Under the pieces are notes generated by a model, which saw only the letters and a program-made list of their open reading frames with translations, had not been told where the DNA came from and searched no databases. The position numbers and the translations under genes are program-made. A stretch of DNA of 64,000 nt from Thermodesulfobacteriota bacterium (GTDB lineage: Bacteria; Desulfobacterota_D; UBA1144; Nemesobacterales; JAJCZQ01), in assembly GCA_965215275.1 (NCBI GenBank), contig OZ244044.1:1504001-1568000 (forward strand), written 5' to 3'. Shown here piece after piece: positions 1,340 through 60,439 of this stretch (positions within the stretch are counted from its first letter, which is position 1; each line of letters begins with the position of its first letter).

Positions 1340-1399
1340 ATCATCATTATGAAAGATTTCATAAGAGGATCAAATGTAAAAACACGTAGTTCCATACCT

Positions 1400-1411
1400 C
1401 CCCCCCCCCCC
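1400..1411 (+). repeat. poly-C tract 1 (C12) in the leader frame of paralog 1
   Basis: 12 consecutive C inside an ORF starting at ATG 1349 (MKDFIRGSNVKTRSSIPPPPP) that stops at TAG 1463. Confidence 0.9.
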
Positions 1412-1473
1412 GTGTATACCTTGCCTTTCAGTAGGGTACGGGTACACTGTAACGACAATGCTTAGGTTCATAT

Positions 1474-1484
1474 CCCCCCCCCCC
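1474..1484 (+). repeat. poly-C tract 2 (C11) just upstream of the signal-peptide codons of paralog 1
   Basis: ATG 1458 frame stops at TAA 1488; C10 or C13 would fuse it to YKLVLSLVFFLLCVIPAAA and the main ORF. Confidence 0.9.
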
Positions 1485-1542
1485 ATATAAGTTAGTTCTT
1501 TCCCTGGTCTTTTTTCTTCTGTGCGTAATACCCGCAGCCGCG

Positions 1543-3933
1543 ATGGTCCGTAACGGGGAAACGGCGTCGGTGTCCGTTGACGACCGGGGACAGGAGGACG
1601 GACCTTTTCTTCAGGAGGCTTCGGCTTCGTGGGAAGAAGGAGTGGAAGCAGGAATAAGAGAAGGGTTTTATGGAAAAGGAACGTTTTACGTCCGGGGAGC
1701 AGGGGACGGACATGAAAAAGGAGATCAGGCTAATTTTTCTGAATATTCCAATTACTACGGAGTAACTGCCGTTTGTTCAACGGACGGTTTTGGAAAAAAG
1801 AGTTTCTTTTCAGAAGAGGGAGTAAACCTGTGGGTGTGTGCACCTGGTTCTGATATCGTGACCACAGATAACAACAACGGTTACGTTGTAACTTCCGGAA
1901 CGTTCCTGTCAGCTTCACAGGTTGCAGGAGTGGCAGCACTGCTGAGAGAGGTTAACGGAGAACTGAGCTGGAGGGATATAAAGCTTATACTTGCGGGTTC
2001 AGCACGGCAGAACGATTTTTTTGACCCTGGCTGGGAGACTGGAGCTGTTAAATACGGTTCTGACGTGGAAAGATATAATTATAGTCCCAGGTATGGTTTT
2101 GGCGTGGTGGACGCAGAAGCAGCCGCAGAACTTGCAAAAAGCTGGAAAGGCGTAGGAGAAATGAGGACCATTACAGCTTCTTCAGATAATGAACTGACGA
2201 TCCCTGATGGAGAAGAAAATGGAGATGGAGAAGCGGACGGGGTCCTTGTCTCCGGACTTGTGATACCGGACGTGGAGGAAATATTTACGGAATTCGTTGA
2301 AGTTGAACTTGTTTTTTCTCATGACCGCTTGCAGGACCTTGATATACAGATAACCTCTCCTTCCGGGACAGTATCGGAACTTGTAAGGGAGTTTTCAGGG
2401 GAAGAAGACACCAGCGTCAGTTACCTGAGAAGAACACATCGTTTCGGGTCGGCAAGACACCTTGGGGAAGCCCCTTCCGGAGAATGGATTTTAAAAATAT
2501 CTGATACTGCTTCCGGAGATGGAGAAGATAGAGAAAATACGGGGACCTTGCACTCCTGGAACATTAAGGTATACGGGCACGGGAAGGGGGATCTTTTAAC
2601 GGACCCAGTCAGTGAGACGGGTCCTAAACATCATTATCTAAGTTTTGGTGGTCTGACAGAAGAAGATCATGTATTTACAGTAGGAGTTATGATAAGTCCA
2701 TTTCGTCCACCTCAGGTAGTTGATTCAGGGGCTGGAGCAGTAAGATACAGTTTAACTCCTGCTTTACCTGCCGGATTGATGTTTAATGTTGTTACCCTAC
2801 AGGTAACAGGAACGCCAACTACTCCGATGTCTGATACTGAGTACACATATACTGCTATGGACAGAGGTGGGGATAGTGATAGTATAACGTTCAATATCAG
2901 GGTAAAGGGTATAGCTGGTGCTCCGAGTTTTGGGAATGAGTCAATCCCTGGTCAGATATACATTCAAGGGACAACGGCAAACCTTCCGGTAACACTGCCT
3001 TCTGCAACATCAGGGGATACTCCGTTAACTTACAGTATAGCACCTGAGTTACCAGCTGGATTGGACTTTGCTTCTGATACCCGAGTAATAAGTGGCACAC
3101 CTTCTACTGCAACGTCTGAGGCTGATTACACATATACGGTTACTGATATAGATGGAGACACTGTTGAGTTAATGTTCGGGATCACTATATTAGCAGACGT
3201 AATGCCAACCTTTAGCGGTGAGACAATAGATGATAAGGAGTACATAGCAGGGAGTCTAATAACACCAGTAACGCTGCCTGCAGCAACTGGAGGTAATACT
3301 CCATTAACTTACAGTTTAACTCCTGCTTTACCAACTGGATTGAACTTTAACACAGCTACCCGAGTAATAAGTGGAACACCCACTACTGCAATGAGCAGGA
3401 ATACTTATACATATACGGTAACAGACATAAATGGAGATACTGTTAAGTTAATGTTCGGGATCACTATATTAGCTGACAGCATGCCAGACTTCGGCGGTGA
3501 GACAATAGATGATAAGGAGTACATAGCAGGGAGTCTAATAACACCAGTAACGCTGCCTGCAGCAACTGGAGGTAATGCTCCATTAACTTACAGTTTAACT
3601 CCTGCTTTACCAACTGGATTGAACTTTAATCCTGATACCCGAGTGATAAGTGGCACACCTTCTACTGCAACGTCTGAGGCTGATTACACATATACGGTTA
3701 CTGATATAGATGGAGACACGGATGAGAGAACGTTCAGTATAATAATAGAGGTTTCTTCTGCTCCGCCACCACAAGGACCAAGAACGTCAGGTACTGATTC
3801 AGGTGGAGGAGGATGTGCCGTCTCCGGTCAGAGCGGCGTTGTTCCTGATCTGCTCGGAGCAGTGGCGTGTCTGATACTTATACCCGTGTCTGTAATTATC
3901 AGAAGGAATAGAATAGCTCAGATAAAGACTTAG
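1543..3933 (+). CDS. Surface protein paralog 1: N-truncated inactive S8 (kexin-like) domain, P-domain, 4 Ig-like (He_PIG-type) repeats, GGGC-TM-basic C-terminal sorting tail; true start probably upstream and frameshifted at poly-C
   Basis: LSWRDIKLIL and YGFGVVDA kexin motifs; P-domain (LDIQITSPSGT, GEWILKI, GTLHSW); repeats of LPxGLxFxxxTRVISGTPT; in-frame signal-like stretch at 1486-1542. Confidence 0.85.
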   Translation: MVRNGETASVSVDDRGQEDGPFLQEASASWEEGVEAGIREGFYGKGTFYVRGAGDGHEKGDQANFSEYSNYYGVTAVCSTDGFGKKSFFSEEGVNLWVCAPGSDIVTTDNNNGYVVTSGTFLSASQVAGVAALLREVNGELSWRDIKLILAGSARQNDFFDPGWETGAVKYGSDVERYNYSPRYGFGVVDAEAAAELAKSWKGVGEMRTITASSDNELTIPDGEENGDGEADGVLVSGLVIPDVEEIFTEFVEVELVFSHDRLQDLDIQITSPSGTVSELVREFSGEEDTSVSYLRRTHRFGSARHLGEAPSGEWILKISDTASGDGEDRENTGTLHSWNIKVYGHGKGDLLTDPVSETGPKHHYLSFGGLTEEDHVFTVGVMISPFRPPQVVDSGAGAVRYSLTPALPAGLMFNVVTLQVTGTPTTPMSDTEYTYTAMDRGGDSDSITFNIRVKGIAGAPSFGNESIPGQIYIQGTTANLPVTLPSATSGDTPLTYSIAPELPAGLDFASDTRVISGTPSTATSEADYTYTVTDIDGDTVELMFGITILADVMPTFSGETIDDKEYIAGSLITPVTLPAATGGNTPLTYSLTPALPTGLNFNTATRVISGTPTTAMSRNTYTYTVTDINGDTVKLMFGITILADSMPDFGGETIDDKEYIAGSLITPVTLPAATGGNAPLTYSLTPALPTGLNFNPDTRVISGTPSTATSEADYTYTVTDIDGDTDERTFSIIIEVSSAPPPQGPRTSGTDSGGGGCAVSGQSGVVPDLLGAVACLILIPVSVIIRRNRIAQIKT
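3074..3718 (+). repeat. Near-identical intragenic repeats with 279-bp (93-aa) period
   Basis: Block at 3217 recurs at 3496 (+279); block at 3074 recurs at 3632 (+558). Confidence 0.85.
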
Positions 3934-14012: not shown

Positions 14013-14993
14013 TTAACCTATTAACTCCTTATATTTTAATCTTTTACCTTCCAATCTTTTACCTTCCAATCTTTTACCTTCCAATCTTTTAATAACCTTT
14101 TTAATCTGATCCATAGTAGGTAAAGGTCTGTTATTATGCCTTCCAGCATATTCATCTACATAGCGTTGTAGATGTTTCCTGCTCATGAAGTGGTATATCC
14201 CAGTATACCCTCTTTTAAGCATAGACCAGAAACTTTCCATCCCGTTGGTATGTGCCTGTTCCCTGATATATTCACCTACTCCATGATTAACTGTCTTGTG
14301 TTTATACCCTTTCTTGTTCAGTCCACTATACCCTCTGTTCTCGTCTGTATAAATAGTTGATTCAGCATCTACAGTTTTATCTATCAAACCTTCTAATGTT
14401 TTACTATCTACAACTTCAGTTACCTTTGCTTTTACCTTCTTATCTATCCTTGATTTAATACCTACTACTGCAGATTTAGTTTTAGTGCTTCTGCCTTGAG
14501 TCCCTTTAGTTCTATTGGATTGGTGCTTGTTCCTTTCAAGTCCACCAACATAGGTCTCATCAACTTCTACAGGAGATAACAACGGATTATCTGACTGCTC
14601 ATCAAACGATTCTCGTATCCTGTGACCCAAGAACCATGCTGTCTTCTGCGTTACCTCTACATCACTTGAAAGTTTTAAACTTGAAATTCCTTTAAGATTG
14701 GTATTCAGCAAGTAAATAGCCATTAGCCATTTATGAAGTGATATCTTGCTTTTGGCTAATACTGTGTTTGTTCTCACGCTGAAATACTTACGGCAATCTC
14801 TGCATCTGTAAGGCATCGTAGGATGTTTTATTTCTATTGTATTAAAACTTCCACAGTGAGAGCAGTATCTATCCTTACCATCTTTACCCCACTTCTGCTC
14901 CTCAAAACACTTTCTTGCTAATCCCTCATCTGGAAACATTTTAAAAAACTCATACAAACTAACTTTATCTTGTTTCGTTCTTTTTCTCATCAT
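14013..14993 (-). CDS. IS1595-family DDE transposase
   Basis: CSHC/CRDC zinc ribbon, HTH (QKTAWFLGHRIR), VEVDETYVGG, IYTDE, HTNGMESFWSMLKRG, HLQRYVDE. Confidence 0.95.
   Translation of the reverse strand: MMRKRTKQDKVSLYEFFKMFPDEGLARKCFEEQKWGKDGKDRYCSHCGSFNTIEIKHPTMPYRCRDCRKYFSVRTNTVLAKSKISLHKWLMAIYLLNTNLKGISSLKLSSDVEVTQKTAWFLGHRIRESFDEQSDNPLLSPVEVDETYVGGLERNKHQSNRTKGTQGRSTKTKSAVVGIKSRIDKKVKAKVTEVVDSKTLEGLIDKTVDAESTIYTDENRGYSGLNKKGYKHKTVNHGVGEYIREQAHTNGMESFWSMLKRGYTGIYHFMSRKHLQRYVDEYAGRHNNRPLPTMDQIKKVIKRLEGKRLEGKRLEGKRLKYKELIG
14038..14091. repeat. 15-bp tandem repeat (~3.6 copies) encoding KRLEG x3 at the transposase C-terminus
   Basis: AATCTTTTACCTTCC three times plus partial AATCTTTTA. 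Confidence 0.9.
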
Positions 14994-29569: not shown

Positions 29570-29598
29570 TTGACATTACATCAGAACGGAAGTAAAAT
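29570..29598 (+). promoter_or_regulatory. sigma70-type promoter of paralog 2
   Basis: TTGACA, 17-nt spacer, TAAAAT; ATG 29605 is 7 nt after the -10 box. Confidence 0.7.
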
Positions 29599-29604
29599 AT
29601 AAAA

Positions 29605-32600
29605 ATGTATGAAAAACATGATGGACTCTATCCCCCCCCCCCCCGTCAATATAGTAGTTTAACGGGCAGTTCCCGCCGGAACGGCAGGAACCTTGTACTT
29701 TCCCTTGTCCTTTTTCTTCTGTGCATAATGATCACTGTTGCAGAGGGACAGGACAGCGTAAATGATCCGTTCTCCGAATGCAGGGTTATCAGTGCAGACG
29801 CGGAAGATCCGCTGTACGGATGTCAGTGGCATCTGAAGAACACGGGGCAGCTTGGTTTTTCCGGAAAAGCAGTAACAGCAGGAGAAGATATAAACGTAGA
29901 GGGAGTGTGGAACGAAGACGTATATGGTTCTGGAATTAACGTAGCAATAGTAAGTGACGGTATTGACCTTTCACATGAGGACCTTTCTGCTAAGGTCCGT
30001 TCCGGACTGAACTGGAGTTATTTTGAAAGAAATAATTCTGAAGAGAACAGTTCTGAAAAATATAATTCAGAAAGAGATGATCATTCAGACGGTTCATCCT
30101 TTACCGGAACACGAGCGGCAGGAGTAATTGCAGCAACTGGATATAACGGACTGGGAGTAAGAGGAACAGCACCTGGTGCGAGTATATACAGTTACAGGTT
30201 ATCCGGTGATCTCAGTGAAGCTGACGCAATGGTCCGTAATAAAGAAATAACCGCTGTATCGGTTAACGGCCGGGTATCTGAGGACGGAGCTTTTTTTCAG
30301 GAGGCTTCATCTGTCTGGGAAGAAGGATTGGATACGGGAATAAGGGAAGGGTTTTATGGGAAAGGTGTGTTTTACGTCTGGGGAGCAGGGGACGGTCACG
30401 AGAATAACGATCAGGCTAATTTTAATGAATATTCCAGCTATTACGGAGTAACAGCCGTTTGTTCAACGGACGGCTTTGGAAAGAAGAGTATATTTTCAGA
30501 AGAGGGAGTAAATCTCTGGGTATGTGCACCTGGTTCTGATATTGTGACCACAGATAACAACAACGATTACGTTGTAACATCCGGAACTGTCCTTTCAGCT
30601 TCACAGGTTGGAGGAGTGGCTGCACTGCTGAGAGAGGTTAATGGAAATCTGAGCTGGAGGGATATAAAGCTTATACTTGCGGGTTCAGCAAGGCAGAACG
30701 ACGTTTCTGACATGAGCTGGGAGACTGGAGCGGTTAAATACGGTTCTGACGTGGAAAGATATAATTATAATCCTAAGTATGGTTTTGGCGTGGTAGACGC
30801 AGAAGCAGCCGCAGAGCTTGCCGGAAGCTGGAAAGGCATCGGAGAGATGAGGACCATTACAGCTTCTTCCGATAATGAACTGACAATTCCTGATGGAGAA
30901 GGAGAAGCAGATGGAATACTTACCTCCACACTTGTGATACCGGACGTGGAGGAAATATTTACGGAATTCGTTGAGGTAGAACTTGTTTTTTCTCATGACC
31001 GCTTGCAGGACCTTGATATAAAAATAACCTCTCCTTCCGGGACAGTTTCTGAACTTGTCCGGGAATTTTCAGGTGAGGAAGAAGACGCTGAGATCAGTTA
31101 TGTAAGAAGAACACATCGTTTCGGGTCGGCTAAACACCTCGGAGAAGACCCTTCCGGTGAATGGACCCTTGATATATCCGATACTGCTTCCGGAGATGAA
31201 GCAGATGAAGAAAATACTTTTACCTTACACTCCTGGAGCATTAAGGTATACGGGAATTTTTATCAAGGACCTGGCAGGGAGATAACTACTAAAGCTTTAA
31301 ATTGGGGCGGACAGACAGTTCAGGATCAGGTGTACAGAGTAGGAACTCAGATAGCACCGTTACAGCTGCCTGAGGCGACCGGGGCAGAAGGAATAACGTA
31401 CAGTATGACACCTGATTTACCTGCTGGGCTGGAGTTTAACGATACCACCCGGGTTATAAGCGGAACCCCAACTAAATCGCAGTCTAATGAACGTTATCAA
31501 ATTGTTGCCAGAGACGAAAATGGAAACGTGAAGGGTTTAGCGTTCCATATAAGGGTAAGGTTCCGTAACTCCACAATACCGAGTTTCAGCGATACCATCC
31601 CGGATCAGAACTACGTAACGGGGAGAGAAATAACGCCACTGGTGTTCCCTAGTGCAACGGGAGGGGATGGTCAGTTAAGGTACACTTTTAACGGCACTTT
31701 AACTAACTTACCAAATGGATTGAGACTTACCAGTGATCCGTTCAGGATAAGAGGAACACCAGGTAGTGGTAGTGCGGGGACAAGTACCTGGCAATATACC
31801 GCTACTGACTCAGACGGGGATACTGCTACACTTGAGTTCAGGATAAGGATAAAAGCTGCAGCTGACGTTCCGAGCTTCGGCGGTCAGATGATAGATGATA
31901 AGTTTTATACGGCAATGGTTCAAATATCACCATTCACGCTACCTCTTGCAACGCAAGGAACTGGAATTACACTCAGGTTAACCCCTAATTTACCTGATGG
32001 ATTGAATTTTAACTTTGTCACCCAAGTGATAAGCGGAACACCAACTGCTGCGATGCCTAAGACTGATTATACATGGAGAGCAACGGACAGAGACGGATAT
32101 ACGGCTGAATTGACGTTCAGTATAACGATAACGGCCCTGTCCTTTGACGGGCAGGTACCTTCTTCTCCTGTTTTGTACTTGGCGGAGAGACCAGTAACAC
32201 CGTTAACACTGCCTGCTGCAACGGGAGGTACTGCTCCGTATACTTACGTTCTGACCCCTGAATTACCTGATGGACTGGACTTTAACGATACCACCAGAGT
32301 TATAAGCGGGACACCGACTGCTGCAACGCCCGTGAATACCTATACGTATACCGTTACAGACGCAGACGGAACTGAGACGGAGGTGACGTTCGATATTGCC
32401 GTAGCAGCACACTTTTCAGGCGTTGAGATAGAAAGCAGGTTTTACACGGTCGGTACGGCGGTAACGGAAACGCTGCCCGAGGCAATCGGACATAACGGAA
32501 CGGTAACGTACAGTTTAACTCCTGCCCCTCCTGCTGAATTGACCTTTACCCCTGCCACCCGGGTTATAAGCGGAACACCGACTGCTATACAGAAGAATGC

Positions 32601-33426
32601 GAGGCTTTATACGTATAGTGCTGCTACCGGTGCAGGTGTACCTGCTCGAACGTTGGTGTTCCATATCACGGTAAGAGATGAACCGGACACAAGGCCGAGT
32701 TTCGGCGGTGAGACGGTAGAAGATAAGGAATACATAATATCGGGAAGTCCGATAACCCCGTTCGTGCTGCCTGAGGCAACGGGAGGGAATGGAACGGTAA
32801 CATACAGTCTGACTCCTCGTTTACCAGACGGATTGATCTTTACGCCTGTTGATCGAGAGACAAGCGGGACACTGACTGCTGCGATGTCTGAGACCGATTA
32901 TACGTGGAGTGCCACGGACGAGGATAACGACAGGGCTGGGTTAACGTTCAGTATAACGGTGGAAGAGGACAGCGAACCGGCATTCAGCGTGACGACGATA
33001 GAAGATCAGGTGTACACGGGGGAAAGAATAAGGCTGCCGGTAGCAACGGGAGGGAACCCGCCGTTAAGATACAGTATAGATCCTCGTTTACCGACGGGAA
33101 TGAGATTGAACGAAGACACAGGGGTCATAAGCGGGACGCCCGCGAGTGCGTCACCTGCAACTTCTTACACGTACACGGTAACGGACAGGAATGGAGACAT
33201 GAAAGGGTTGACTTTCAGGCTCAGTGCAGAGGTTTCTTCTACTCCAGGACCAACAACAGGAAGACCAGGAACGTCAGGTAGTGATTCAGGCGGAGGTGGA
33301 GGAGGATGTGCCGTCTCAGATCAGAGCAGCACTGCTTCTGATATTCCCGGAGTAATTGCATGTCTGATACTTATTCCTGTATCAGTAGTGATAAAAAGGA
33401 AGAGAAGATCTCAGATAAAGACTTAG
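29605..33426 (+). CDS. Surface protein paralog 2: signal peptide, inactive S8 kexin-like domain, P-domain, 7 Ig-like repeats, GGGC-TM-basic tail
   Basis: DPLYGCQWHL, VAIVSDGID, TGTRAAG, GTVLSAS, YGFGVVDA; repeats with ISGTPT; GGGGGGCAVS...CLILIPVSVVIKRKRR. Confidence 0.9.
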   Translation: MYEKHDGLYPPPPRQYSSLTGSSRRNGRNLVLSLVLFLLCIMITVAEGQDSVNDPFSECRVISADAEDPLYGCQWHLKNTGQLGFSGKAVTAGEDINVEGVWNEDVYGSGINVAIVSDGIDLSHEDLSAKVRSGLNWSYFERNNSEENSSEKYNSERDDHSDGSSFTGTRAAGVIAATGYNGLGVRGTAPGASIYSYRLSGDLSEADAMVRNKEITAVSVNGRVSEDGAFFQEASSVWEEGLDTGIREGFYGKGVFYVWGAGDGHENNDQANFNEYSSYYGVTAVCSTDGFGKKSIFSEEGVNLWVCAPGSDIVTTDNNNDYVVTSGTVLSASQVGGVAALLREVNGNLSWRDIKLILAGSARQNDVSDMSWETGAVKYGSDVERYNYNPKYGFGVVDAEAAAELAGSWKGIGEMRTITASSDNELTIPDGEGEADGILTSTLVIPDVEEIFTEFVEVELVFSHDRLQDLDIKITSPSGTVSELVREFSGEEEDAEISYVRRTHRFGSAKHLGEDPSGEWTLDISDTASGDEADEENTFTLHSWSIKVYGNFYQGPGREITTKALNWGGQTVQDQVYRVGTQIAPLQLPEATGAEGITYSMTPDLPAGLEFNDTTRVISGTPTKSQSNERYQIVARDENGNVKGLAFHIRVRFRNSTIPSFSDTIPDQNYVTGREITPLVFPSATGGDGQLRYTFNGTLTNLPNGLRLTSDPFRIRGTPGSGSAGTSTWQYTATDSDGDTATLEFRIRIKAAADVPSFGGQMIDDKFYTAMVQISPFTLPLATQGTGITLRLTPNLPDGLNFNFVTQVISGTPTAAMPKTDYTWRATDRDGYTAELTFSITITALSFDGQVPSSPVLYLAERPVTPLTLPAATGGTAPYTYVLTPELPDGLDFNDTTRVISGTPTAATPVNTYTYTVTDADGTETEVTFDIAVAAHFSGVEIESRFYTVGTAVTETLPEAIGHNGTVTYSLTPAPPAELTFTPATRVISGTPTAIQKNARLYTYSAATGAGVPARTLVFHITVRDEPDTRPSFGGETVEDKEYIISGSPITPFVLPEATGGNGTVTYSLTPRLPDGLIFTPVDRETSGTLTAAMSETDYTWSATDEDNDRAGLTFSITVEEDSEPAFSVTTIEDQVYTGERIRLPVATGGNPPLRYSIDPRLPTGMRLNEDTGVISGTPASASPATSYTYTVTDRNGDMKGLTFRLSAEVSSTPGPTTGRPGTSGSDSGGGGGGCAVSDQSSTASDIPGVIACLILIPVSVVIKRKRRSQIKT
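29632..29644 (+). repeat. poly-C tract (C13) at the 5' end of paralog 2
   Basis: 13 consecutive C; in frame from ATG 29605, out of frame from ATG 29609. Confidence 0.9.
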
Positions 33427-35090: not shown

Positions 35091-36029
35091 CTAACTGATC
35101 AATTCTTTGTATTTAAGATGCTTACCTGACAAACCTTTAATAACTTTTTCGATCTGATTCATAGTATGTAAAGGACGGATGTTATGCCTGCCCGCATACT
35201 CATCTACATAGCGTTGTAGATGTTTCCTGCTCATGTAGTGGTATATCCCAGTATGTCCTCTTTTCAGCATAGACCAGAAACTTTCCATCCCGTTGGTATG
35301 TGCCTGTTCCTTGATATATTCACCTACTCCGTGATTAACTGTCTTGTGTTTATACCCTTTTTTATTCAGTCCACTATATCCTAAATTCTCATCTGTATAG
35401 ATCGTTGATCCGTCTTGAACTGTTTCCTTAATCATATTTTGCAGTTCATCCTTCTTAACGGTTTCTGTTACTTTTGCTTTAACCTTCTTATCTACTCTTG
35501 ACTTAATACCTACTACGGCAGATTTAGTTTTAGTACTTCTGCCCTGTGTTCCCTTCACTTTTTTACTGGCATGCTTGTTTCTCTCAAGTCCGCCAACATA
35601 AGTCTCATCCATCTCTATTGGTGACATTAAAGGATTATCTGATTGCTCGTCAAATACCTTCCTTATTCGGTGTCCTAAATACCAGGCTGTCGTTTGAGTA
35701 ACTCCTATATCTCTTGCCAACTTATGACTGGATACTCCCTTTAAGTTGGTAGTCATCAAATATATAGCTAATAACCATTGATGCAAAGATAAATTACTAC
35801 CTTCAAATACAGTGCCTGTTCTGACACTAAATCGTTTATCACAATCTTTACACCTATAAGGCATGGTAGCATGTTTAGCTTTAGAAGTTCTTACACTTCC
35901 ACAACGAGGGCAACATTTATACTCATTATCTTCACCCCAGAGCATCTTCTCAATATGTTTTCTTGCTGATTCCTCGTCTGGAAACATTTTATTAAAATCA
36001 TATAAACTAACTTTTTTTCTATGTGCCAT
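35091..36029 (-). CDS. IS1595-family DDE transposase
   Basis: CPRC/CKDC zinc ribbon, IEMDETYVGG, IYTDE, HTNGMESFWSMLKRG. Confidence 0.95.
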   Translation of the reverse strand: MAHRKKVSLYDFNKMFPDEESARKHIEKMLWGEDNEYKCCPRCGSVRTSKAKHATMPYRCKDCDKRFSVRTGTVFEGSNLSLHQWLLAIYLMTTNLKGVSSHKLARDIGVTQTTAWYLGHRIRKVFDEQSDNPLMSPIEMDETYVGGLERNKHASKKVKGTQGRSTKTKSAVVGIKSRVDKKVKAKVTETVKKDELQNMIKETVQDGSTIYTDENLGYSGLNKKGYKHKTVNHGVGEYIKEQAHTNGMESFWSMLKRGHTGIYHYMSRKHLQRYVDEYAGRHNIRPLHTMNQIEKVIKGLSGKHLKYKELIS

Positions 36030-57097: not shown

Positions 57098-57127
57098 TTG
57101 ACATTCGTTCATAATACTTGGTAAAAT
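57098..57127 (+). promoter_or_regulatory. sigma70-type promoter of paralog 3
   Basis: TTGACA, 18-nt spacer, TAAAAT with extended TGn. Confidence 0.65.
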
Positions 57128-57173
57128 ATCAATGTTATGAAAAATCCAAACATAAAAACACGTAGTTCCATTA

Positions 57174-57182
57174 CCCCCCCCC
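57174..57182 (+). repeat. poly-C tract 1 (C9) of paralog 3
   Basis: ORF from ATG 57137 (MKNPNIKTRSSITPP) stops at TAA 57221; C10 would open the conserved inter-tract frame. Confidence 0.9.
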
Positions 57183-57243
57183 ATGTATACCTGACCTTTC
57201 AGCCTGGTATAAGTATTCTGTAAGAAAAATGTTTAAGATAATA

Positions 57244-57252
57244 CCCCCCCCC
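57244..57252 (+). repeat. poly-C tract 2 (C9) of paralog 3
   Basis: Frame through ATG 57229 stops at TAA 57256; C8 or C11 would fuse it to SKSLLTLVLFLLFIISMAA and the main ORF. Confidence 0.9.
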
Positions 57253-57301
57253 ATCTAAGTCATTACTAACTTTAGTCTTATTTCTTCTGTTTATAATTTC
57301 T

Positions 57302-60300
57302 ATGGCTGCAAAAGGACAGAGCAGCTTAGAAGAAACATTATCTGAATGCAGAGGAATGAGTTCAGACACGGAAGATCCGTTATACGGATGTCAGTGGCAT
57401 CTGAAGAACACGGGGCAGTTAAGTATTTCCGGAAAGAGAATAACAGCAGGAGAAGATATAAACATAGAGGGAGTGTGGAACGAAGACGTATACGGTACCG
57501 GAATTAACGTAGCAATAGTAAGTGACGGTATCGACCTTTCTCACGAGGACCTTTCTGATAAGGTCCGTTCCGGACCGAACTATGATCTTTCTGACAGTTC
57601 ATCCTTTACCGGAACACGAGCGGCAGGTGTAATAGCAGCAACTGGATATAACGGACTGGGAGTAAGAGGAACAGCACCTGGTGCGAGTATATACAGTTAC
57701 GGGTTAACTGGTGATCTCAGGGAAGCGGACGCAAAAGATGCAATGGTCCGTAATAAGGAAATAACTGCTGTATCGGTTAACGGCCGGGGATCTGAGGAGG
57801 GAGCTTTTTTTCAGGAGGCTTCAACTTCCTGGGAAGAAGGAGTGGAACTTGGTATAAGTAAAGGGTTTTATGGTAAAGGTGTGTTTTACGTCCGGGGAGC
57901 AGGGGACGGGCATGAGAATAACGATCAGGCTAATTTTTCTGAATATTCTAATTACTACGGCGTAACTGCCGTGTGTTCAACAGACGGCTTTGGAAAGAAG
58001 AGTATATTTTCAGAAGAGGGAGTAAATCTATGGGTATGTGCACCTGGTTCTGATATTGTAACTACAGATAACAACAACGATTACGTTGTAACTTCCGGAA
58101 CATTTCTATCAGCTTCACAGGTTGCAGGAGTGGCAGCACTGCTGAGAGAGATAAACGGGCAGCTGAGCTGGAGGGATGTAAAGCTTATACTTGCGGGTTC
58201 AGCACGGCAGAACGATTTTTTTGACATGAGCTGGGAGACAGGAGCTGTTAAATACGGTTCTGATACGGAAAGATATAAATATAATCCTAAGTATGGTTTT
58301 GGCGTGGTAGACGCAGAAGCAGCCGCAGAACTTGCCAGAAGCTGGAAAGGCGTAGGTGAAATGAGGACCGTTACAGCTTCTTCAGATAATGAACTGACAA
58401 TCCCTGATGGAGAAGGAGAAGCAGACGGTGTCCTTGTCTCCAGACTTATGATACCGGACCTGGAAGAAACAACATTTACGGAGTTTGTAGAAGTAGAACT
58501 TGTTTTCTCGTGTGACTGCTTACAGGACCTTAATATACAGATAACCTCTCCTTCCGGGACAGTGTCTGAACTTGTGCGGGAGTTTGCCGGGGAGTCTGTA
58601 AGTGGATCTTCAAATGAAGAAGAAAACTGCGTCAGTTACCTGAGAAGAACACATCGTTTCGGGTCGGCTAAACACCTCGGAGAAGACCCTTCCGGAGAAT
58701 GGATCCTTAAGATCTCCGATACTGCTTCCGGAGATGAAGAAGATGGAAAAAACACTGTTACCTTACACTCATGGAGCGTTAAGGTGTATGGGAATTTTTA
58801 TCAGGGACATGGCAGTGAGACAGGTACTAAACATCATGAAATAACCTTTGGTGGTGCAACGATAGATAATCAAGTATATAAAGTAGGTAAAACAATAACA
58901 CCATTAGAGCTACCTAACGCAACAAGAACAGGAGGGGGTACTTTCAGTCTTGCATTGTCTCCTCGTTTATTACCTGCTGGATTGAGTCGTAACGGCAGAA
59001 CTATAAGTGGAACACCAACTGCACCGAAGCAAGAGACTACTTATAGATGGATTGCTTCTATAGGACATGATAATACTGAGATAAGGTTCAACATCACGGT
59101 AGAAGCTAACACAGAACCCACCTTCTCAGGAGCAACTGTCCCAGATCAGATATGGACGGAAGGGGTAAGGATACCAACGTTACGTCTTCCTAATGCAACA
59201 GGAGGTAACGGAACTTTAACATACTTTTTAAGTCCTTCGCAGCCAGTTGGTATAAACAGACAGGACAACAGGTTATCCGGAACACCTACGGAACCTAAAG
59301 GAAGAACTCGTCATACATGGACAGTCAGAGACGAAGATGGTGATGAAGATATTATTGAGTTCTATATTACTGTAAGAGATAAAGATGACGTACCGAGCTT
59401 CGGCAGTGAGACTGTAGAAGATCAGGTGTATGTTGTACGCTCAATAGCAGGTCTTCCAGTAACTCTGCCAGAGGCAACGGGAGGGAATGGAGCATTAACT
59501 TACATTTTACTTCCTTTTTTACCTCGTGGATTGAATTTTGATCCTGACACCCGAGTAATAAGTGGCACACCCACCCGTGCATCCCCTATTAGGAATATGA
59601 TACATACAGTATCAGACATAGATGGAAGTAGTGCTCAATTAGAGTTCAGGATAACAGTAGAACCAAACACGGAACCAACCTTCGGCAATGAAACTATAGA
59701 TAATAAGGTGTACATTAACGGCATTACAGCAGTAATGGAAACACTGCCTGAAGCAACGTCAGGGAATGCACCATTAACTTACAGTTTAACTAGTCTTGGG
59801 TTAATTGATCTTAATTTACCTCGTGGATTGAATTTTGATCCTGACACCCGAGTGTTAAGTGGAACACCCAACCTTGACGCACACGCACGAATACTTCCTG
59901 TAACTCGTACATATACATATAAAGTAACAGACAATGATGGAGATACAGCAGAGATAACGTTCAGTATAACAGTAGAAGAAGACAGCGAACCGGACTTCAG
60001 CGGTGTGACAATACCAGATCGTGTGTACACGGGGAGAACAATAGAGCTGCCAGAGGCAGCGGGAGGGAATGCACCGGTTACTTACAGTATAACACCTGGT
60101 CTGCCAGCTGGATTGATATTTAACGAAGTAACGCGGGAAATAAGTGGGACACCCAGGAGTGCATCATCTGCTGCTTCTTACACGTATACGGCAACAGACA
60201 GGAATGAAGATACGGATACATTGGATTTCATGCTCAGTGTAGAGGTTACTTCTACTCCAGGACCAACAACAGGAAGACCAGGAACGTCAGGTACTGATTC

Positions 60301-60439
60301 AGGCGGAGGTGGAGGAGGATGTGCCGTATCAGAGCAGAGCAGCGTTGCTTTTGATATTCTCGGAGTAATGACATGTCTGATACTTATACCTGTATCAGTA
60401 GCTATCAGAAGGAAGAGAAGAGCTCAGATAAAGACATAG
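57302..60439 (+). CDS. Surface protein paralog 3: inactive S8 kexin-like domain, P-domain, 5 Ig-like repeats, GGGC-TM-basic tail; signal peptide encoded upstream, beyond the poly-C frameshift
   Basis: Same motifs as paralog 2 (VAIVSDGID, TGTRAAG, GTFLSAS); in-frame hydrophobic stretch at 57254-57301 has no start codon. Confidence 0.88.
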   Translation: MAAKGQSSLEETLSECRGMSSDTEDPLYGCQWHLKNTGQLSISGKRITAGEDINIEGVWNEDVYGTGINVAIVSDGIDLSHEDLSDKVRSGPNYDLSDSSSFTGTRAAGVIAATGYNGLGVRGTAPGASIYSYGLTGDLREADAKDAMVRNKEITAVSVNGRGSEEGAFFQEASTSWEEGVELGISKGFYGKGVFYVRGAGDGHENNDQANFSEYSNYYGVTAVCSTDGFGKKSIFSEEGVNLWVCAPGSDIVTTDNNNDYVVTSGTFLSASQVAGVAALLREINGQLSWRDVKLILAGSARQNDFFDMSWETGAVKYGSDTERYKYNPKYGFGVVDAEAAAELARSWKGVGEMRTVTASSDNELTIPDGEGEADGVLVSRLMIPDLEETTFTEFVEVELVFSCDCLQDLNIQITSPSGTVSELVREFAGESVSGSSNEEENCVSYLRRTHRFGSAKHLGEDPSGEWILKISDTASGDEEDGKNTVTLHSWSVKVYGNFYQGHGSETGTKHHEITFGGATIDNQVYKVGKTITPLELPNATRTGGGTFSLALSPRLLPAGLSRNGRTISGTPTAPKQETTYRWIASIGHDNTEIRFNITVEANTEPTFSGATVPDQIWTEGVRIPTLRLPNATGGNGTLTYFLSPSQPVGINRQDNRLSGTPTEPKGRTRHTWTVRDEDGDEDIIEFYITVRDKDDVPSFGSETVEDQVYVVRSIAGLPVTLPEATGGNGALTYILLPFLPRGLNFDPDTRVISGTPTRASPIRNMIHTVSDIDGSSAQLEFRITVEPNTEPTFGNETIDNKVYINGITAVMETLPEATSGNAPLTYSLTSLGLIDLNLPRGLNFDPDTRVLSGTPNLDAHARILPVTRTYTYKVTDNDGDTAEITFSITVEEDSEPDFSGVTIPDRVYTGRTIELPEAAGGNAPVTYSITPGLPAGLIFNEVTREISGTPRSASSAASYTYTATDRNEDTDTLDFMLSVEVTSTPGPTTGRPGTSGTDSGGGGGGCAVSEQSSVAFDILGVMTCLILIPVSVAIRRKRRAQIKT

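Follow-up and report, generated by a model that had tools for sequence, protein, structure and literature searches.

Paired poly-C tracts in the leaders of a surface-protein paralogue family: a probable serial frameshift switch in a Thermodesulfobacteriota genome

Introduction

How can a gene be expressed whose start codon is followed by two runs of cytosine, both of a length that leaves the body of the gene out of frame, and what could two such runs do that one could not? The question is raised by a gene, here called paralog 1, near the left end of a window of 64 000 nt (the whole stretch of DNA that was analysed, positions 1 504 001 to 1 568 000 of contig OZ244044.1). The genome consists of one contig of 1.99 Mb, is 99.87 % complete, and comes from a lineage whose lifestyle we take to be host-associated, possibly with sponges. 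Its glutamine synthetase has named relatives at 75–81 % identity that carry the labels Ca. Dadabacteria or Thermodesulfobacteriota, which makes Dadabacteria the probable lineage. Repeat-driven phase variation is textbook knowledge in pathogens, and a preliminary description of this DNA proposed that the two runs form a pair of serial switches. The reading that we favour, with a probability of roughly 60 %, is slipped-strand phase variation by a leader in which two frameshift switches stand in series and would both have to be in frame (an AND gate); it is built on comparisons of sequences within and between genomes.

Layout and reading frames of the paralog 1 leader

All elements of the leader are on the forward strand, and their order and every coordinate given earlier hold on recomputation. 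The outer promoter, P1, is sigma-70-like and occupies 1311–1339 (TTGACA at 1311–1316, 17 nt, TAAGAT at 1334–1339); it was also called by a promoter scan. Only 9 nt separate it from the first start codon, ATG1 at 1349, and a near-leaderless transcript is therefore predicted. ATG1 opens a leader segment of 17 codons (1349–1399), followed by tract 1 (C12 in the assembly, 1400–1411), a 62 nt spacer (1412–1473), tract 2 (C11, 1474–1484) and the hydrophobic region of a signal peptide with an AxA-like end as judged by eye (1485–1542). The spacer has one open frame, the others stopping at TAG 1432–1434 and TAG 1463–1465, and the claim that this single stop-free frame resembles the spacer peptide of paralog 3 is borne out. 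Within it lie a decayed inner promoter copy, P2 (CTTGCC-17-TACACT, 1420–1448), which is homologous to P1-type and methyltransferase-leader promoters and was not picked up by the promoter scan of this leader, and a second start codon, ATG2 (1458–1460), for which no clear Shine–Dalgarno sequence is seen by eye.

As assembled, reading from ATG 1349 gives 38 aa and reading from ATG 1458 a 10-aa peptide that ends at TAA 1488–1490, while downstream of the leader the frame is open to 3933. When 36 pairs of tract lengths were computed (C9–C14 for tract 1, C8–C13 for tract 2), four gave a product of 860–862 aa from ATG 1349, namely C11 or C14 at tract 1 combined with C10 or C13 at tract 2; this is the length requirement proposed earlier, with both tracts off-frame as assembled. 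From ATG 1458, C10 or C13 at tract 2 is enough. The lengths of the tracts thus decide between an open and a closed full-length frame, and the C12 as well as the C11 lies in the 5′ coding region less than 140 nt from the ATG; in these tract and frame properties the feature would behave like an SSR contingency locus.

A family of tract-bearing paralogues

Paralog 1 belongs to a family of 57 paralogues in the genome, 43 of them on the forward strand, whose open frames amount to 174 kb or 8.8 % of the genome. The leaders of 28 carry two tracts, those of 22 carry one and those of seven none; 312995, with its leader more than 1.5 kb upstream, is counted among the 22. Another of these 22, 430055, was left out of the reading-path set because the gene starts on its own and fusion with its tract is impossible, so that 21 one-tract genes have the tract in the reading path and the tract-gated genes number 49 (28 plus 21). 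At 430055 (minus strand) a cassette of promoter, ATG and C9, close in sequence to the outer module of paralog 1, lies at 431141; the gene has an intact catalytic triad and a Shine–Dalgarno-like AGGTGA at its own start, an in-frame stop prevents fusion with the cassette, and the arrangement may be an intermediate of cassette capture.

Two other members lie in the window, both on the forward strand. Paralog 3 (57098–60439) has a two-tract leader, with ATG1 at 57137, C9 at 57174–57182, ATG2 at 57229 and C9 at 57244–57252. Paralog 2 (29570–33426) has a one-tract leader with C13 at 29632–29644. In this gene (29605/29609) and in another one-tract paralogue, at genome position 400799, two overlapping ATGs in different frames stand at +35 and +39 from the −35 hexamer; as assembled the upstream one (29605 in paralog 2) is in frame and the downstream one (29609) is out, so that the choice of ATG decides between ON and OFF. 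The window also contains IS1595-family transposases at 14013–14993 and 35091–36029, the second beside an N6/N4 methyltransferase and a small ORF directly 3′ of paralog 2.

Leaders of the family type occur as well at 627310, 633539, 1649137 and 1014650, on genes without the S8–P core or, in one case, at a site without a run; three of those on genes without this core carry a poly-C run. Three basal paralogues that have no leader tract contain internal runs, G13 in 518332 (out of frame), C9 in 605571 and C17 in 668426 (both in frame). A second repeat-gene family, TPR-like by eye, has C9–C11 runs within the repeats, and some of these runs coincide with frame breaks (19539, 20737, 31545, 1899949, 1901573, 1914729 and 1964984).

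Evidence for serial logic

In all 28 two-tract leaders one spacer frame is open, and in all 28 both other frames stop at or before position +5 of ATG2, upstream of tract 2, so that opposite shifts at the two tracts cannot cancel. Nine of the 28 leaders are net in frame yet blocked, a state seen in paralog 3, where a spacer stop intervenes. Tract lengths range from C8 to C13. Tract 1 is in frame, +1 and −1 in 8, 14 and 6 leaders, tract 2 in 5, 3 and 20, and the states of the two tracts look independent (Fisher P=1); both are in frame in one leader (1029566), against 1.4 expected under independence. The one-tract genes are in frame, +1 and −1 in 4, 12 and 5 cases (n=21), and the difference in the ON share (1/28 against 4/21) is not significant (P=0.15).

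The history of stops in the spacer bears on which start codon is read. The 15 codons upstream of ATG2 matter only under read-through from ATG1. Among 87 changes, no new stop arose in the open frame over these codons where 3.9–5.6 were expected (P 0.004–0.02 over four spanning trees; 24 distinct spacers), the test being approximate because it uses minimum spanning trees of recombining paralogues and no true genealogy. The other two frames gained 3–5 stops, matching the neutral expectation. In a forward simulation the probability that all spacers stay open was 0.01, and that of both other frames staying closed was 0.16, which is not significant alone. The deficit in the open frame makes read-through from ATG1 look selected.

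The geometry of P1 is common to 48 tract-bearing paralogues, with ATG1 37–40 nt from the −35 hexamer in all 48. The frame of the ATG1 segment is free of stops in all 23 distinct versions, stops being present in the other two frames in 22 and 17 of them, and the larger indels in its alignment measure, by eye, 6, 12 or other multiples of 3 nt; taken alone this segment has no significant stop deficit in a test without power (P=0.63). No amino-acid constraint was found in the spacer (12 synonymous and 47 non-synonymous changes, as under neutrality), as expected of a disposable extension of the signal peptide. Counting against the reading from ATG1 is the length of that signal peptide, about 60 aa.

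Four one-tract genes (422363, 435688, 653132 and 633539) combine the left flank of tract 1 with the right flank of tract 2, and their sole start is ATG1 or its GTG equivalent. They appear to have arisen by deletion of the spacer through recombination between the runs, which would be a slower way of reducing two switches to a single one. The open frame in all 28 leaders, the stop deficit, the spread of phases and the match of the deep sequencing runs to the assembly support, at the level of family genetics, the serial AND logic that had been proposed for ATG 1349.

Origin of the spacer and its relation to methyltransferase leaders

Every spacer has, 38 nt before ATG2, a −35-like hexamer followed by 17 nt, a −10-like hexamer and 9 nt, which is the geometry of P1 and ATG1. 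When scored with a profile of the one-tract promoters, all 28 inner promoters fall in the top 0.002–1.5 % of genome windows, with −23 to +19 bits for P2 against 13.5–52 bits for P1. We infer that a cassette made up of promoter, ATG and poly-C is present here a second time, in decayed form, as the spacer.

The same cassette (promoter, 9 nt, ATG, 5–13 nt, poly-C) is found elsewhere in the genome in front of five DNA-methyltransferase genes or remnants (384592, 496990, 828763, 899109 and 1401695), and further methyltransferase loci with poly-C near the start are at 570916, 734754, 1001504, 1490289 and 1814694; at least ten DNA-methyltransferase genes or remnants carry C9 to C26 right behind the start. 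Outside the hexamers and the ATG, spacers and methyltransferase leaders match on average at 12.3 of 26 positions, compared with 6.7±1.8 (maximum 10.8) for 147 control promoter-like sites, in an alignment that was picked after the likeness had been seen by eye. Searches with nhmmer gave weak matches, one methyltransferase leader with the spacer profile (E=0.73) and three with the one-tract promoter profile (E=0.1–0.3), and the homology of the cassettes therefore rests on the anchored 26-position comparison. Among 18 methyltransferase loci in 17 other genomes, C9 follows the start in two, both in a genome of the same genus, and is absent in 16; that genome (80 % complete) gave no match to the S8 query, and its methyltransferase promoters have no visible likeness to the cassette. 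These comparisons support the view that surface and methyltransferase genes share one cassette, and only suggest that it would have passed from methyltransferase to surface gene. A search of viral contigs for the cassette pattern gave no match. At about 676700–676850 a long AGAGC pentanucleotide repeat, with no poly-C, stands in frame ahead of another methyltransferase gene and is a candidate for another repeat switch.

Proposed mechanism

In the mechanism that we propose, replication slippage would alter each C run independently, P1 would give a near-leaderless mRNA translated from ATG1, and the complete protein would appear only if tract 1 and tract 2 were both of in-frame length. The probability of the ON state would then be that of one tract multiplied by that of the other, about 5 % when the observed marginals are used, and so low a value would thin the number of near-identical, catalytically dead surface proteins displayed per cell. 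The cassette would have come to stand twice in tandem, after which the inner promoter would have decayed and its sequence been kept open as leader codons. Some leak by re-initiation at ATG2 may occur, and an AND gate with such a leak is plausible. The earlier suggestion that ATG 1458 is conserved and could bypass tract 1 stands in its first part, ATG2 being present in all 28 two-tract leaders, and bypass is possible; ATG 1458 would be the start of the older or duplicated inner cassette, the promoter of which has decayed.

The conserved ATG2 is also the basis of the one serious alternative, which we regard as rather unlikely and which is compatible with the AND gate. Here tract 2 alone would be the ON/OFF switch, for a 29-aa signal peptide read from ATG2, and tract 1 would set the level of expression, either by placing the stop of an upstream ORF or through an effect on the inner promoter, which begins 8 nt past the tract. 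A stop 2–8 nt before ATG2 would permit re-initiation, one 37 nt before it would not, and an in-frame tract would give a fusion. Such a role would suit the presence of ATG2 in every two-tract leader, 38 nt behind a −35-like hexamer just as ATG1 is, the normal length of the signal peptide, and the inner promoter of 205406, which is still near-consensus (TTGACC-17-TACAAT). The modal state of tract 1 (14/28) stops the upstream ORF near ATG2, the commonest off-frame state ending 2–8 nt before it in 27 of 28 leaders, and in paralog 1, where tract 1 as assembled is in the other off-frame state, the stop of the upstream ORF overlaps ATG2. A two-tract design of level plus switch is moreover described for sabA of Helicobacter pylori (PMC2715451); compared with the promoter tract of that gene, tract 1 lies downstream of P1 and ATG1 and 8 nt upstream of the −35 hexamer of the decayed P2. 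Against these points, this alternative by itself leaves the stop deficit upstream of ATG2 unexplained, and the stops of the +1 frame were gained and lost at the neutral rate. P2 scores far below P1, and in 5 of 28 leaders its −10 hexamer starts with TG; the genome uses Shine–Dalgarno initiation, for which ATG2 has at most a weak sequence.

The encoded proteins and the question of decay

The body of paralog 1 (1543–3933, forward strand) encodes a truncated, triad-less S8 domain, a P-domain, He_PIG Ig repeats and a C-terminal tail composed of a Gly-rich-Cys, a hydrophobic and a basic part. PF00082 (Peptidase_S8) is matched above the cut-off in all three paralogues of the window. Paralog 1 does not have the triad of an active S8 subtilase: the Asp and His columns are deleted and Ser is replaced by Phe. 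Relative to its sisters it has an internal in-frame deletion of about 420–510 nt (~140–170 codons) at the start of S8, which fuses the signal peptide directly to mid-S8; tract 2 is 181 nt from a fixed anchor, compared with 604–695 nt in 25 of 27 others and ~1000 nt in two. The deletion junction is carried by three sequencing runs, and paralog 1, being partly deleted, may be a decaying copy. Against the JDVT-, Synerg- and Heimdall-CTERM models the tails scored 9.6–12.1 bits, where the cut-offs are 22.5–27, and all three tails fell below them, so that surface anchoring is predicted by anatomy only. We predict that the products of the family are membrane-anchored, catalytically dead surface proteins of subtilase, P-domain and Ig type.

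The core of S8 and P-domain is shared with kexin/subtilisin proteins, the closest intact relatives being found in Dehalococcoidia MAGs (38–44 % identity). Whereas the Asp–His–Ser triad is present in all five outgroup rows and in seven basal paralogues among the eight others, it occurs in none of the 49 tract-gated genes. These form one clade (SH-aLRT 98) in a quick tree, the only tree used and one in which 312995 is mislabelled as tract-less; the loss of the triad thus represents one event and not 49, and is consistent with a changed function. Searches for relatives gave no match to the paralog 3 leader DNA in 20 relatives, and the protein query found only distant S8 matches (27–38 % identity) in 15 of 40 relatives. 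A metagenome scan yielded four loci at 40–45 % identity, and closer protein relatives come from other assemblies (P0021 and P0027, at 78–79 %); the relative P0050 begins with an in-frame one-tract leader. At 24 S8 loci of other genomes, mostly Dehalococcoidia, no C run of at least 7 was found near the gene.

These data also bear on an improbable explanation, that the double leader is a non-adaptive relic, a tandem cassette copied passively, its runs kept by insertion-biased slippage and most copies broken or decaying. The loss of catalytic residues in all 49 tract-gated genes, the large deletion in paralog 1, the premature stops in a few other genes, the tract lengths that are mostly identical across sequencing runs, and the fact that the S8 query did not find the family in any of four genomes of the same family (80–99 % complete) are what such a relic would show. 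However, most bodies are open for 600–2100 codons and end in an anchor, which disfavours passive decay, and the open spacer frame has been kept. Moreover, methyltransferase genes of this genome and of the one from the same genus also have poly-C at their starts, and the mapping of triad loss to a single clade fits a change of function.

Abundance of poly-C runs

Run counts in this genome are far from what base composition predicts, and the leader tracts are therefore not due to chance. Runs of exactly C7 or G7 are absent where 48 are expected, C9 and G9 runs number 68 against 2.2 expected and form the mode, and there are 139 C or G runs of at least 8. The pattern of C8, 45–75 nt and C8 has 28 matches, all in the surface-protein family; among 100 other genomes of the order it occurs in four, one to five times each, and the family was absent from all five of these loci that were read. 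Across the order C9/G9 words are patchy, with 274 overlapping matches in this genome, 108–552 in six rich genomes and fewer than ten in many. On the forward strand C runs of at least 8 outnumber G runs by 109 to 30, in both replichores, an excess that leading- or lagging-strand position fails to explain; from 0.85 to 1.2 Mb the GC skew is patchy, and rearrangement is possible there. A genome of another family (G078) contains two copies, on the reverse strand, of an independent two-tract design, with G9 in the ribosome-binding position 7 nt before the ATG and a second G9 within the signal peptide.

The preliminary description had named ribosomal or transcriptional slippage on the C runs as an alternative. 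Programmed ribosomal frameshifting or slippage by RNA polymerase would give constitutive low expression from fixed DNA lengths. Twenty of the 28 tract-2 sites need the same shift of −1 nt (nominal P=5×10−5, the paralogues not being independent), and a stop lies one codon past the CCC run. Nevertheless, no single shift would serve all tracts of a class, let alone all classes (at tract 1 it is mostly +1), the tracts vary in length from C8 to C13, and the modal C9 accounts for much of the skew at tract 2. Since all phases occur at both tracts and no stable RNA structure was found in the leader (fold z=+0.52), we consider this explanation very unlikely.

Tract lengths across sequencing runs and mismatch repair

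Contigs from two sequencing runs, X2 (16×) and X3 (110×), which may be the source data of the assembly, span 900–1749 and match C12 and C11 exactly, with no gap. Two shallow runs, X1 (4×) and X5 (5.7×, from a different study), carry C11 at tract 1, which is the in-frame allele; the X5 contig has no cover at 1511–1557, and the comparison at tract 2 and the deletion therefore covers the other three runs. In a second region of 15 kb with four tracts of C8–C10, all ten bridged run-by-tract observations listed equal the assembly. Over both regions 15 of the 17 bridged observations listed equal the assembly, in a comparison made on contigs, which drop minority alleles; the two that differ (C12 to C11) are both at the longest tract, at depths of 4 and 5.7, where errors are possible. 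The length variation of tract 1 among runs is thus no more than a hint of polymorphism. Several other differences were discounted because contigs of paralogues can yield them: a 2-nt deletion at 1398 (X2 and X3), a 1-nt deletion at 1399 (X5), insertions at 14790 and 14860, a deletion at 14791, and a joint of 14791 to 14861 that skips the spacer (X2, side 20 nt).

Least probable of all, and largely refuted, is that the frameshifts are homopolymer assembly errors, a possibility raised at the outset: although the sequencing technology is not on record, the deep runs are perhaps the source of the assembly and the two shallow ones differ at tract 1, the shifts go in both directions, the contigs at 16× and 110× reproduce both tracts, tract 2 is out of frame in all three bridging runs, even with C11 at tract 1, the in-frame C8 of the second region is identical in all four runs, and only 14 of the 139 C/G runs of at least 8 lie inside long open frames, compared with 162 of 272 A/T runs of at least 8 and 65 of 78 C6/G6 runs.

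The genome has matches above the cut-off to MutS (MutS_V, in an 868-aa frame) and MutL (MutL_C, 617 aa). Mismatch repair, as predicted from these matches, is thus not absent as it is in genomes with hypermutable tracts of the Campylobacter type, and the rates of switching may be low.

Comparison with known systems

The contingency loci of Campylobacter jejuni comprise many poly-G/C tracts with a mode of 9–10, which lie in surface and methyltransferase genes within the 5′ coding region, and the G9/G10 mode is ascribed to a length-dependent indel bias without mismatch repair (PMC8355987). The run-length spectrum found here (none at 7, mode at 9) and the frame-setting tracts on surface and methyltransferase genes resemble that description; unlike in C. 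jejuni, 28 paralogues have two serial tracts per leader, and the sequence predicts both MutS and MutL. The sabA gene of H. pylori, which combines a promoter poly-T with a CT repeat in the coding region (PMC2715451), is similar in having two slippage-prone tracts on one surface-protein gene, whereas here both tracts follow the start codon that belongs to the strong promoter, and each of them would shift the frame. In Mycoplasma gallisepticum, the vlhA genes are described as under transcriptional control through 12 GAA repeats upstream of the start site (PMC6258824). They too are a big family of surface paralogues with a repeat for each gene and few genes ON, but their control is transcriptional, in contrast to the translational frameshifting at two serial mononucleotide runs proposed here.

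The Cpn1054 family of Chlamydia pneumoniae reportedly has poly-C upstream of and within the 5′ coding region, so that in about 11 genes a non-coding tract is paired with a coding one. With such a layout it resembles ours in being a paralogous family with 5′ poly-C tracts, possibly two per gene, and differs in its unrelated proteins and in that one tract is said to be non-coding. Homopolymer phase variation is hypothesized for that family (PMC4514472). In XNG0663 of Neisseria gonorrhoeae, the combined state of two tracts sets the frame (PMC1097732). This is a single hypothetical gene that belongs to no family, with short, unlike tracts (CCCCTCC and T6–7) whose indels can offset one another, and the passages on it do not describe an AND gate enforced by stops. 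Among the papers listed in literature searches of partial coverage, none describes two frameshift tracts that stand in series, with stops enforcing both, throughout a family of paralogues, and none describes phase variation in Dadabacteria.

Implications

A single frameshift tract in each gene could hardly bring the ON share much below about one-third, which would ration a large antigen family poorly. Where two tracts follow one another and stops close both wrong frames, the probabilities are multiplied, and the ON frequency would thereby become tunable by gene architecture. In a broader and more tentative scenario, which we think possible at best, the cassette would have come from phase-variable methyltransferases and been stacked into a stop-enforced AND gate, with about one of the 28 genes expressed per cell; the result would be a stochastic, nearly mutually exclusive display of antigens that needs no expression site, recombinase or epigenetic silencing, in an uncultured symbiont proficient in mismatch repair. 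Because the genome holds forms with no tract, one tract, two tracts and a deleted spacer side by side, it offers a direct test of how contingency loci originate, for which the sharing of cassettes with methyltransferase leaders gives a route, and of whether stacking is selected. The family points to a surface-variation system that takes up about 9 % of the genome of a little-studied lineage and is derived from a protease whose catalytic triad was lost.
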